Virus genome (UHGV): UHGV-0243446
Reading direction: 5' to 3' (one strand)
From: a virus
DNA: 11,725 nucleotides
Shown here: one piece after another, positions 3,744 through 10,049 of the stretch
Layout of the letters: each line of letters opens with the position of its first letter
Numbering within the stretch: the first letter of the stretch is position 1
Notes under the pieces: generated by a model
What the model was told of the DNA's origin: nothing
The model's input: the letters and a program-made list of their open reading frames with translations, nothing else
The model's database searches: none
Program-made: the position numbers and the translations under genes

Positions 3744-4250
3744 TTAAATTGCGTGAATAGCGTGACGAGGGAAGGGGAGAGTTACTGGTGCAAAGGGTAT
3801 ATCGTCGTCAAAATCCATCGGAGGTTCGTTGTGTTGTGCTGGTGATGATTGCTGCTGTGGCTTCTGTGATTGCCTGCTGGCTGCTTGTTGTTTGCTGTCG
3901 CCAATGCCGCCAAGCATTTGCATCACGCCATTAATTCCGACATGAACCTCGGTTGTGTAACGGTCTTGCCCTGACTGGTCTTTCCACTTTCTGGTTCTCA
4001 GCATTCCCTCGAAATAAATCTGATCACCTTTTTTCACATACCGCCCAACGACCTCAGCCAGTTTCCCGGATACAGCAACACGATGCCATTCAGTCAATTC
4101 CTTTTGCTCGCCAGTATTTTTATCTCGCCATTGTTCTGACGTGGCTATTGTCAGGTTAGCGAACGCTGTTCCTGATGGTGAGTATCGAACTTCCGGGTCT
4201 TGTCCTACCCGACCAAGGATAATCACCTTATTTACGCCTCTGCTTGCCAT
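3744..4250 (-). CDS. ssb: Single-stranded DNA-binding protein (SSB) with C-terminal extension
   Basis: N-terminus [13 protein letters not shown]...DPEVRY...TEWHRV...[11 protein letters not shown] closely resembles E. coli SSB, followed by a Gln/Ser-rich tail and [10 protein letters not shown]. The ORF then continues 15 codons ([15 protein letters not shown]) before the stop. Confidence 0.9.
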
Positions 4251-6199: not shown

Positions 6200-6238
6200 G
6201 TTATCCTCTGTTGTTTATGCCAAAAATAAAGGCCACCA

Positions 6239-6439
6239 TCAGGCAGCCTTGTTATTCTGTTTACCAAGTTCTCTGGCAATCATTGCCGTCGTTCGTATTG
6301 CCCATTTATCGACATATTTCCCATCTTCCATTACAGGAAACATTTCTTCAGGCTTAACCATGCATTCCGATTGCAGCTTGCATCCATTGCATCGCTTGAA
6401 TTGTCCACACCATTGATTTTTATCAATAGTCGTAGTCAT
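6239..6439 (-). CDS. ral: Ral-like restriction-alleviation protein (66 aa)
   Basis: 66 aa, the same size as lambda Ral. Its start is overlapped by 17 nt by a 28-aa ORF, which matches the lambda orf28/ral arrangement as I recall it. Product MTTTIDKNQWCGQFKRCNGCKLQSEC... Confidence 0.55.
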   Translation of the reverse strand: MTTTIDKNQWCGQFKRCNGCKLQSECMVKPEEMFPVMEDGKYVDKWAIRTTAMIARELGKQNNKAA

Positions 6440-6509
6440 ACGGATAGTCCTGGTATTGTTCCATCACATCCTGAGGATGCTCTTCGAACTCTTCAAATTC
6501 TTCTTCCAT
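6423..6509 (-). CDS. orf28-like acidic micro-protein (28 aa)
   Basis: Absent from the ORF track. ATG about 6509 with GAGGTGA RBS that overlaps the N stop. Product MEEEFEEFEEHPQDVMEQYQDYPYDYDY; stop overlaps the ral-like start. Confidence 0.4.
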   Translation of the reverse strand: MEEEFEEFEEHPQDVMEQYQDYPYDYDY

Positions 6510-6517
6510 ATATCACC

Positions 6518-6817
6518 TCAAATAAGTGGTTTGCTGCCTAATTTCATTTTCTGGCGACCAACACAAGTCACACCCATTTCACTGCGTGGCTTGCTGTAGT
6601 AAATACGGTTCTGTTTACGCTCGACTTCTTCTGCCTTCTTGCAGCGAAGGCTTCCGAGTGATGCTGCTTTGTCTGCTCTGACGCAACCAGAGAGCTTTAG
6701 CGCAATTTTTCGCGCCAGTCGCTGTTCTTGCATTGCCTGTTCACGTTGAGCCTGTCTGCGTGCTCTGCGGCGATTTCTGGTGTTATCGTCAGCCAGATAT
6801 GTAATGACTACTGCCAT
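6518..6817 (-). CDS. N: N-family transcription antitermination protein
   Basis: ATG at 6817 with GGAGG RBS 5 nt upstream. N-terminal arginine-rich motif (TRNRRRARRQAQREQ). C-terminal region (RKQNRIYYSKPRSEMGVTCVGRQKMKLGSKPLI) resembles lambda N. nutL lies upstream in the leader. Confidence 0.85.
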   Translation of the reverse strand: MAVVITYLADDNTRNRRRARRQAQREQAMQEQRLARKIALKLSGCVRADKAASLGSLRCKKAEEVERKQNRIYYSKPRSEMGVTCVGRQKMKLGSKPLI

Positions 6818-7185: not shown

Positions 7186-7575
7186 TTAGTCAGCGAAGGT
7201 TAAGACGAGAATTACCTTAATGATGTCTGCTACAACAGACACGGCCATAGATAAACCAAAGACAATCCAAGCCATAGAGATGTCTTCACTACCATCGTAT
7301 AGAGTTCCGTAATCACTGGTGTAAGGCGTAAATGTCGCGCCTTGATACAACAGGTATAAGCTTGAACCATAGAGGATAAATGCAGATATCCCTTGTATTG
7401 CTATGATCACCAGAATCATGAAACGAGCTGATCTATGCGCCCAAGCCTGGCTTATTTTTTCTGATAGAGATTTCGCAATAAAAGCATGCGCTAAGCCGTA
7501 AATTGTCGAGATTTCCAACATCCCCAAAAAGCTTGCTATAGCGGTTCCAACCATAATCGCCCCTTGCGTGATCAA
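7186..7575 (-). CDS. Small polytopic membrane protein (3 predicted TM helices) in the rex/immunity-region position
   Basis: Track ORF begins with TTG overlapping the cI stop. An ATG about 7554 with AAGGGG RBS is likely the real start (about 122 aa). Three hydrophobic segments of about 22-25 residues. Downstream of cI on the same strand, as rexAB is in lambda. Confidence 0.6.
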   Translation of the reverse strand: MITQGAIMVGTAIASFLGMLEISTIYGLAHAFIAKSLSEKISQAWAHRSARFMILVIIAIQGISAFILYGSSLYLLYQGATFTPYTSDYGTLYDGSEDISMAWIVFGLSMAVSVVADIIKVILVLTFAD

Positions 7576-8288
7576 ACCAGCCTTAGTTTTGTCTCAATTG
7601 CAACGCCTATAATCTTGCAGTTTCCATTGATTGGCACGAGAGGCCATGCAGGATTAAGTCCCTTGAGGTATTTATTTCCGCCGTCGATTATCAGCTTCTT
7701 GAATGTTGCTTCGTTAGAGTCAGAAAGTTTTGCTATGACCAAGCTGCCGTTGATCGCCTCCCTTCCGGTATCGAAAAGAACGAATGTTCCCTCTGGAATG
7801 CTTAACCCAACCGGTGCCGTCATTGAATCACCTTCCACTTTAAGCCAGAACGCATTACCTTGAATATGCGCGTCAGACTCAAGCCAAACATCTATGTCTT
7901 TAATGGTGTATGGTTCGCATGCTTCACACCACGAGCCAGCCTGGATACTGCTTAACACCGGATACCTCTTTCCTGCTCTGTATTCCCCTGCATACCTTAC
8001 GTTGGCATCGCTCTTAAGGCTTTCTGCCTGTTCTGCAACCTTGGCAGCAATTGACTGGCTAAAATCAGCAATTGAGACTTGCAACAGTCGTGCAAAACCA
8101 GATGCAACCTCAACGTTTAGCGCGTTTCTGCCATTAAGATAATGCCCTACCGCTCCTTGGGTGATACCCAGTTCATCAGCGATTGAGTATTGGGTTATTC
8201 CCAATTCTTTCTTTTTTGACTCATACAAAGCCTTAAGCCGCTTAGCGTCTTCGAGCTGTTCTGTCGTCAGTGATTTTTTATTTTCCAT
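7572..8288 (-). CDS. cI: cI-type phage repressor (HTH N-domain plus S24 LexA-like autoprotease C-domain)
   Basis: N-terminus MENKKSLTTEQLEDAKRLKALYESKKKELGITQYSIADELG resembles lambda cI. Ala-Gly cleavage site in IQAGSW. Catalytic Ser in GDSM and Lys in FKKL. Start codon abuts the operator region. Confidence 0.92.
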   Translation of the reverse strand: MENKKSLTTEQLEDAKRLKALYESKKKELGITQYSIADELGITQGAVGHYLNGRNALNVEVASGFARLLQVSIADFSQSIAAKVAEQAESLKSDANVRYAGEYRAGKRYPVLSSIQAGSWCEACEPYTIKDIDVWLESDAHIQGNAFWLKVEGDSMTAPVGLSIPEGTFVLFDTGREAINGSLVIAKLSDSNEATFKKLIIDGGNKYLKGLNPAWPLVPINGNCKIIGVAIETKLRLV

Positions 8289-9010: not shown

Positions 9011-9172
9011 ATGACAAAACGTCGTAAGAAATACCAGGAAAAAGAAGAGATTCGACACCCTGATTCACCTGAGGGATTAGTGGTAGCCGCAGCAAATAAC
9101 AGGGCGTTCGCAGAGCGCCTTGTTGGTGTTTACAGACTAGCCAAAGCAGGAGTGAAGCATGGGCGTCGTTAA
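9011..9172 (+). CDS. Hypothetical small basic protein (53 aa) between cII and the replication initiator
   Basis: ATG about 9011 with AGGAG RBS about 6 nt upstream; its stop overlaps the start of the downstream O-like ORF. The track's longer version begins with TTG at 8966 inside cII. Confidence 0.35.
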   Translation: MTKRRKKYQEKEEIRHPDSPEGLVVAAANNRAFAERLVGVYRLAKAGVKHGRR

Positions 9173-10049
9173 GTTAGCTGATTACAGGCATAACCCTGTA
9201 CAACATCAGGAGGCATCCAGTATGGGGTATGTCTCTATACACCGCCAGTTTATGGACAGCAGGCTCTATAAGGACTCTCAGGCAGTACATCTTTGGCTTC
9301 ACTTAATCCTCAAGGCTAATCACGAATCTACTGTCGTCAATACGGATATCGGTCCGATAACTGTTGATCGCGGTCAGATGATAACTGGACGCCCGTCGCT
9401 GGTCAGAGAAACATTCATCCCCGACAACAAAGTTCGGAGCTTATTACGGACTTTTGAGTCGAAAGGGATGCTTAATATTTGCTCGATGGGGAAGAAATTT
9501 AGCCTGTTTACAATCGTTAAATATGACGATTTTCAGGCAAAAAATTGTCCAACGGTTGTCCAACGGTTGTCCAACGCAAACACCAGTAATGGCGCGGCTC
9601 TCAGCGGAGATTGTCCAACGGTTGTCCAACGGTTGTCCATAAACAATAATATAAATAATATCTCTAATACTGACGTATTAGAGAGTGCCACAGCAGACAA
9701 AAAGTCTGACAAGAAAAAACCTTCCGTCAGCTGTCAGGATGTTGTCGATGCTTACCACGAAATCCTTCCTGAAGCGCCAAGAATCCGCGCACTGAATGAC
9801 AAGCGTAAAAACCAGATCCGAACGTTCTGGCGCAAAGCCGGAGTGATAACCCGCCAGCTTGACGGGCATGGGTTCACGATGCAGGACTGGAGAAATTATT
9901 TGAGCTACGTAGGCGAAAATTGCCGATGGATGTTCGAAGAACGCCCAAACCATCAACGCGGAACCGTCTGGCACAAAAAGGGATTTGATTTCCTGCTTAA
10001 CGACAATACCTACCTGAAAGTTCGTGAGGGTGAACACGATGACCGATAA
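9159..10049 (+). CDS. Replication initiator (lambda O-like / replisome organiser) containing the origin iterons
   Basis: Sits in the O position and is translationally coupled to the helicase. Iterons and an AT-rich tract lie inside the coding sequence, as ori-lambda lies inside O. An alternative start at ATG 9222 has a strong AGGAGG RBS. Confidence 0.7.
   Translation: MGVVKLADYRHNPVQHQEASSMGYVSIHRQFMDSRLYKDSQAVHLWLHLILKANHESTVVNTDIGPITVDRGQMITGRPSLVRETFIPDNKVRSLLRTFESKGMLNICSMGKKFSLFTIVKYDDFQAKNCPTVVQRLSNANTSNGAALSGDCPTVVQRLSINNNINNISNTDVLESATADKKSDKKKPSVSCQDVVDAYHEILPEAPRIRALNDKRKNQIRTFWRKAGVITRQLDGHGFTMQDWRNYLSYVGENCRWMFEERPNHQRGTVWHKKGFDFLLNDNTYLKVREGEHDDR
9545..9643. repeat. Phage replication origin iterons: six copies of an 11-bp repeat TTGTCCAACGG in two triplets
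   Basis: Copies at 9545-9577 and 9611-9643 with 11-bp register. Followed by an AT-rich tract (9641-9665) and a 9-bp inverted repeat CTCTAATAC-TGAC-GTATTAGAG (about 9660-9685). Confidence 0.75.

Follow-up and report, generated by a model that had tools for sequence, protein, structure and literature searches.

The question raised by this locus is whether a 28-codon, very acidic micro-ORF that runs into the start of the anti-restriction gene ral encodes a protein of its own and, if it does, whether that protein shares the task of Ral. The window, meaning the whole stretch of DNA analysed here, comprises 11,725 nucleotides of the virus genome UHGV-0243446 and is overall a P22-like or lambdoid early region, its closest relatives being mEpX2, IME10 and CUS-3.

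Organization of the locus

The elements of the locus are the following:

6518..6817, minus strand: N antiterminator gene, 99 aa (phrog_271, E=2e-35; annotated as N in CUS-3, N7 and phage 21)
6512..6519, minus strand: Shine-Dalgarno site of the micro-ORF, GAGGTGAT, read from the sequence and followed by the 2-nt spacer AT and then ATG
6423..6509 including the stop, minus strand: micro-gene of the orf28 family, 28 aa, MEEEFEEFEEHPQDVMEQYQDYPYDYDY (phrog_16060, E=7e-19)
6448..6451, minus strand: weak Shine-Dalgarno site of ral, AGGA, 8 nt 5' of the ral ATG and within micro-ORF codons Gln20-Asp21
6423..6439, minus strand: dual-coding overlap of orf28 and ral, 17 nt, the ral start codon lying 14 nt 5' of the micro-ORF stop
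6239..6439, minus strand: ral, restriction-alleviation protein of 66 aa beginning MTTTIDKNQWCGQFKRC (PF11058, phrog_1055)
6219..6250, minus strand: intrinsic terminator-like element, a hairpin (6250..6229) followed by a T-run

The stop codon of N (TGA, 6518..6520) overlaps the Shine-Dalgarno site GAGGTGAT, and 8 nt separate this stop from the ATG of the micro-ORF. Terminator prediction detected no intrinsic terminator between N and ral. In the terminator-like element after ral, the 5' arm of the hairpin is formed by the last ral codons and the ral stop is located in the loop. The same element follows ral in lambda, and a terminator is annotated downstream of ral in the phage 21 record.

The sequence-only reading had described a 28-aa acidic ORF overlapping a 66-aa, Cys-containing protein by 17 nt on the minus strand, which is the overlap at 6423..6439, and had taken the larger protein to be Ral-like. 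It is Ral, matched by PF11058 over its full length, and has the same sequence as the Ral proteins of lambda and HK544 (AFH20603.1). That reading had also compared the arrangement to that of lambda, where orf28 (34271..34357) and ral (34087..34287) share the same 17 nt and sieB (34482..35036, on the strand opposite to orf28) lies between N and orf28, as it had stated. In the alignment with lambda that it proposed, both window proteins are 100% identical to those of lambda (lambdap47 for orf28, NP_040623 / AAA96576.1; lambdap46 for ral). Its statement that N directly abuts the micro-ORF also holds, given the 8-nt gap, and this layout was already present in phage 21, CUS-3, HK544 and many prophages. 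By sequence, a lambdoid prophage here carries an orf28-ral cassette of the lambda type immediately behind N, the arrangement of phage 21, and the pair in this layout is already known, as annotation and as a PHROG family. The feature itself is a known cassette correctly recognised and no new system; the remaining interest lies in a conserved micro-gene beside a classic anti-restriction gene.

The N gene is a mosaic. Homology to phage 21 is limited to window positions 6207-6723, which span ral, orf28 and two thirds of N at its C-terminal end. The N-terminal part of N, arginine-rich and RNA-binding, is unlike that of phage 21 and matches phages of the CUS-3/HZ41 type, which implies a different nut specificity.

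Other features of the window

Three further observations concern the rest of the window. A 129-aa predicted membrane protein (7186-7575, minus strand; phrog_6534), with no match in Pfam, NCBIfam or PADLOC, is encoded between the pL/N region and a cI-like repressor gene (7572..8288). Lambda carries rexAB at this position, and the protein may be a prophage-expressed exclusion gene product. Two clusters, 66 nt apart and each made of three tandem 11-nt units TTGTCCAACGG, were identified at 9533-9650 (plus strand) inside an O-like replication gene (9159..10049), and look like origin iterons. Finally, an SSB-like protein (3744-4250, minus strand) extends 17 residues past its C-terminal DDDIPF tip, the tip with which bacterial SSBs normally end.

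The Ral protein

The window Ral matches Pfam PF11058 with 162.5 bits (cut-off 25; E=1.6e-48; residues 1-66 of 66) and phrog_1055 with E=1.7e-49, and has a pI of 8.78. Cysteines are located at positions 11, 17, 20 and 26. In an alignment of 25 sequences C11 and C17 are invariant and C20 and C26 are at least 90% conserved, and the RTT.MI motif (R49-T50-T51, M53, I54) is likewise invariant; all of these residues are present in the window protein. The Ral family is small, since an exhaustive HMM search gave only 41 cluster representatives; one homologue, P0115, had no locus among the viral contigs. Ral is a classic anti-restriction protein without a solved structure and without any relative in the PDB. 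The AlphaFold2 model built from 25 sequences reached a pLDDT of 65.

Ral stimulates de novo methylation and in this way relieves restriction by the type IA systems EcoKI and EcoBI (PMC3874165, PMC12707154). In a published screen the HK544 Ral, expressed as the 66-aa CDS alone from an inducible promoter, protected lambda vir from EcoKI restriction; the 200 genes assayed in that screen did not include orf28, and the regions flanking ral were described there as accessory and carrying other counter-defence genes. Since Ral alone blocks EcoKI, orf28 is unnecessary for the core anti-restriction activity, at least on overexpression, and is at most an accessory or a separate effector.

The orf28-ral cassette was identified in 888 of 5426 complete E. 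coli genomes, and an E. coli chromosome contains a 100% match to the window cassette. Among the matches listed (H49-H60), RefSeq has over the cassette just an 'antirestriction Ral family protein'; the micro-ORF is almost never annotated in RefSeq for the E. coli genomes that bear the cassette.

Coding potential and conservation of orf28

Size alone gives the micro-ORF no significance, since 41 ORFs of at least 20 aa overlap the 2-kb stretch around it; it is conservation that lifts it above chance. Ral queries of lambda, Salmonella and Providencia type were used to gather ral loci from viral and genome contigs. Of the 248 loci with a recognisable ral, 238 contain an ORF of 28 codons that starts with ATG and stops 17 nt into ral, as 47 distinct nucleotide versions encoding 29 distinct peptides. 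In codons 2-23, which do not overlap ral, the minimum numbers of changes at codon positions 1, 2 and 3 were 10, 6 and 37 (chi-square p=1e-7); the corresponding numbers for ral were 34, 25 and 92. Within the 17-nt overlap the changes are spread evenly over the codon positions (4/4/5), as two reading frames predict. Pooled Nei-Gojobori dN/dS was 0.11 for orf28 and 0.13 for ral, and the remaining two sense frames of orf28 contain stops in 44 of 47 and 47 of 47 sequences. The same third-position bias was found in pairwise comparisons with loci whose Ral is 65-71% identical, for example with the Providencia locus L023, where orf28 differs at 14 nt (9 of them third positions) and encodes MEEDIEEFDEHPDDDMRQYQDYPYEYDY.

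Length variants of orf28 differ by whole codons only and comprise versions of 23, 24, 25 and 30 aa. The 23-aa version belongs to a Kluyvera locus, the 25-aa version has lost one EEF unit (MEEEFEEHPQDDMSQYQDYPYEYDY) and the 30-aa version has two additional N-terminal residues. The codon-position bias, the dN/dS of 0.11 and the whole-codon length changes together argue for a genuine protein-coding gene. By this pattern of variation, orf28 encodes a protein and is held by purifying selection as tightly as ral is; it is neither a chance ORF nor a leader indifferent to its sequence.

The peptide matches phrog_16060 over positions 1-28 of 28 (E=7.1e-19). It contains 12 Asp/Glu, no Lys/Arg and 5 Tyr, with a pI of 4.05, a mass of 3.7 kDa and an aromatic C-terminus. 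Ten positions (M1, E6, E7, F8, H11, P12, D14, M16, Y19 and Y22) do not vary among the 32 distinct peptides of 28 residues, and the core motif reads EF[DE][DE]HPxDxMxxYQ[DE]YPY. NCBIfam and PADLOC contain no model for the peptide, and no profile match to Ocr or ArdA was obtained in Pfam, NCBIfam or PADLOC.

An antisense 56-aa ORF (6371..6541, plus strand), open in 47 of 47 variants, was considered and rejected as a gene. Its third codon positions are the first positions of orf28 and vary little, and its openness follows from the Glu/Asp/Tyr codon make-up of orf28.

Among the gathered genome contigs, L004-L019, L022, L024, L025 and L027 are short and of low coverage and encode a Ral 100% identical to that of lambda. 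They belong to assemblies of unrelated bacteria (Pseudoxanthomonas, Nocardioides, Shewanella, Paenibacillus, Bradyrhizobium and others), and those inspected have lambda-type upstream sequence. This looks like lambda DNA contamination or spike-in, not real prophages.

Linkage of orf28 with ral

An orf28-like ORF with its own Shine-Dalgarno site was identified upstream of 73 of 78 distinct Ral proteins. Among 40 distinct combinations of peptide and overlap, 35 overlap ral by 17 nt, 3 by 11 nt and 2 by 8 nt. Even next to the most divergent Ral proteins that could be placed in DNA (45-60% identical to lambda Ral) the micro-ORF is kept, with a purine-rich Shine-Dalgarno site and an 11- or 17-nt overlap. 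Exceptions are five Ral proteins without the canonical ORF: one where it is in fact present with a GTG start; two (L124/L237 and L208) where a recombination joint falls within orf28 and the N-terminal half is replaced; and two (L145 and L167) where orf28 is missing and another 66-aa ORF overlaps ral by ATGA. The viral contigs L124, L208 and L237 contain a possible 13-aa remnant of orf28 (MNKYQ[DE]YPY...) before an intact ral.

A pattern scan of the viral contigs with back-translated EEF[DE][DE]HP placed the peptide exclusively next to ral or to the remains of a ral gene. Where no intact ral followed, the match was a chance hit in an unrelated large protein, an allele with a disrupted ral or a sequence cut off at a contig end. 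The compared loci show that orf28 and ral have been passed on together in practically all of the small Ral family, with the end of orf28 located 8-17 nt inside ral. Such tight co-inheritance, together with equal selective constraint, argues for a functional link between the two genes.

In one widespread ral-disrupted allele, identified in 32 viral contigs, about 105 nt have been lost from the interior of the gene between the short repeats GTGGACAAT and TGGGCAAT, which puts the remainder out of frame:

about 6300-6405 (equivalent positions in the window): deleted part of ral in viral contigs L275, L278, L279, L283, L338, L342 and L392-L417

This group comprises three junction variants in several upstream contexts, and the orf28 frame is open in 31 of 31 readable copies. 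An open frame beside a broken ral is what would be expected if Orf28 were an independent counter-defence or host-modifying micro-protein and no cofactor of Ral, sharing no more than a module with ral, for example a mimic of nucleic acid or of an acidic tail that blocks another defence system or nuclease. The extreme acidity and aromatic C-terminus of the peptide, the activity of Ral without Orf28 and the other counter-defence genes in the accessory regions near ral would fit such a role. Against it, orf28-like peptides were never found away from ral or a ral-remnant locus in the viral-contig scan, and 28 aa is far below the size of Ocr or ArdA. Moreover, the substitutions of orf28 in the ral-deleted alleles (about 5 non-synonymous and 3 synonymous, too few to judge selection) look no more constrained than neutral. 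This reading of Orf28 as an independent micro-protein is considered unlikely.

Translation signals and RNA structure

The start sites of the two genes differ in strength. Averaged over 57 contexts, the energy of the duplex with the anti-Shine-Dalgarno sequence is -6.5 kcal/mol for orf28, -3.8 kcal/mol for ral and -1.9 kcal/mol for random 20-mers; for ral it is about -4 kcal/mol in all contexts. The purine-rich site upstream of orf28 is kept in all diverse loci despite unrelated flanks. Together with the purifying selection, this conserved site is indirect evidence that the peptide is made. The phage 21 record has an RBS annotated at the place equivalent to the AGGA of ral in the window.

A strong orf28 site, a weak ral site and a conserved stop inside ral are the features expected of a leader ORF, that is, of an orf28 that delivers ribosomes to the poorly signalled ral start and whose peptide has no function. 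The coupling of ral to a different upstream ORF where orf28 is missing, and the sufficiency of Ral alone for anti-restriction, point the same way. Such a leader would nevertheless be free to change its amino acids; the dN/dS of orf28 equals that of ral, all 32 distinct 28-residue peptides agree at ten positions, and the motif EF..HP.D.M..YQDYPY can still be read next to Ral proteins that share no more than 45-60% identity with the lambda protein. A pure leader function is judged quite improbable.

The conservation might instead reside in the nucleotides, with an untranslated micro-ORF and, as the conserved element, for instance a terminator, an RNA structure controlling ral or a site of processing. 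The minimum-energy fold of the window pairs the start region of orf28 with that of ral (z=-2.4), and a small 7-bp hairpin, ACUAUUG-N8-CAAUGGU (6409-6430, minus strand), encloses the orf28 stop inside the 5' part of ral. All 13 diverse loci with a 28-codon orf28 have this hairpin, which shows a single compensatory pair; in the 24-aa variant L383 it is not obvious by inspection. RNAalifold over the same 13 diverse loci found no conserved long-range structure, and a common CCG/CCT polymorphism breaks the start-start helix. The concentration of variation at third codon positions (10/6/37), the preservation of the frame through whole-codon indels and the conservation of the Shine-Dalgarno site at the right distance speak against an untranslated element as well, which makes it a very remote explanation. 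RNA structure was rejected as the cause of the orf28 conservation, RNAalifold keeping just the 7-bp hairpin with its single compensatory pair.

Programmed +1 frameshifting would yield an Orf28-Ral fusion protein. In its favour, ral lies in the +1 frame relative to orf28 and rare fusions occur in the databases (P0001 and P0005 via a 1-nt deletion, P0011 via an in-frame deletion). This reading is hardly credible: the overlap (GAC UAU UGA) offers no slippery or shift-prone sequence; overlap sequence, stop codon and overlap length (17, 11 or 8 nt) differ between lineages; ral has its own ATG and functions as a 66-aa protein; and the source of the P0001 fusion is one 1.2-kb contig, which would fit a mutation or a sequencing error. 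The fusions P0001 and P0005 were rejected as evidence for frameshifting, the '76 members' of the cluster being mostly ordinary Ral fragments.

Proposed role of Orf28

The preferred reading, to which a probability of roughly 0.6 is assigned, is that orf28 and ral form a translationally coupled cassette and that the acidic peptide works in counter-defence together with Ral or alongside it. N, orf28 and ral would be read off the pL transcript. Ribosomes would load at the strong orf28 Shine-Dalgarno site, terminate just within ral and pass by translational coupling to the weakly signalled ral start, so that both products would be made together. The acidic, Tyr-rich Orf28 (pI 4.05) would then share its counter-defence task with the basic Ral (pI 8.8), most likely by binding Ral or the Ral-stimulated HsdM/HsdS methyltransferase, or else as a second inhibitor independent of Ral. 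Equal constraint and obligate linkage suggest that Orf28 and Ral have the same task, and their opposite charges (pI 4.05 versus 8.78) would fit an Orf28-Ral complex or competition for a DNA-binding surface. The interpretation of the sequence-only reading, a DNA mimic or a partner of the Ral-like function, is partly supported, in that co-inheritance and equal constraint favour a functional link to ral; the mimic idea is conjectural.

The AlphaFold2 models (pLDDT 65 for Ral and 58 for the rare natural orf28-ral fusion P0001) were uninformative and contain no confident Orf28-Ral contact, and in the fusion Orf28 is a low-confidence helix with a pLDDT of about 50. A CRISPRi knock-down of lambda orf28 gave no plaque defect; the host was without type I restriction, and the result is thus uninformative on counter-defence. 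No functional or evolutionary analysis of orf28 was found in the searchable literature.

A more specific proposal is advanced tentatively, as possible yet doubtful: Orf28 could be a 28-residue counter-defence micro-protein that has gone unnoticed in lambda for four decades, either as an obligate partner by which Ral is tuned or protected when expressed at native levels, or as a second inhibitor, an acidic and aromatic peptide that fills the DNA- or tail-binding site of an enzyme of restriction or of another defence. If the second-inhibitor form were true, Orf28 would be among the smallest anti-defence proteins known and lambdoid restriction alleviation would be a two-component function. What is new here is the comparative evidence that orf28 is conserved as a protein and tied to ral family-wide, which gives a testable hypothesis and a reason to annotate the gene.

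Comparison with known systems

The closest comparison is with lambda itself, where overlap, Shine-Dalgarno site and terminator hairpin are the same as in the window. Lambda differs in its lambda-type N and in a 680-bp segment with sieB (opposite strand) that separates N from orf28, whereas in the window an N of the 21/CUS-3 type ends 8 nt before orf28. The coding sequences are nearly unchanged in the alignment of the window with lambda, phage 21 and CUS-3. Homology to lambda starts about 20 nt upstream of the orf28 Shine-Dalgarno site, which suggests that this site, orf28 and ral move as one module. The early-left operons of phage 21, CUS-3, HK544 and N7 type share the N-orf28-ral layout with 98-99% nucleotide identity; N and ral are annotated in those records and the micro-ORF is unannotated.

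The T4 peptide Stp, 26 residues long and listed as a control gene in the published screen, is an inhibitor of the type IC enzyme EcoprrI; it is basic, stand-alone and not coupled to a Ral-like gene. Like Orf28 it is a phage peptide of fewer than 30 residues, and it is a precedent for such a peptide acting on a type I restriction-modification enzyme. The two have no sequence similarity, and Orf28 differs in being acidic, encoded in overlap with ral and known here from sequence alone. Ocr and ArdA are early proteins that target type I systems and are, as is Orf28, strongly acidic (pI about 4). They differ, however, in folding as dimers of 116-166 residues and in mimicking 20-40 bp of B-DNA, whereas Orf28 has 28 residues and no confident predicted fold; to our knowledge, such a peptide is far smaller than any known DNA mimic. 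Membership of Orf28 in the Stp or the Ocr/ArdA group is not supported by these comparisons.

The geometry of orf28 is that of the coupled overlapping gene pairs and leader ORFs of phage early operons, in which an upstream ORF with the stronger Shine-Dalgarno site has its stop just inside the downstream gene. Orf28 differs from a pure coupling leader in that the peptide itself is conserved, with a dN/dS of 0.11.
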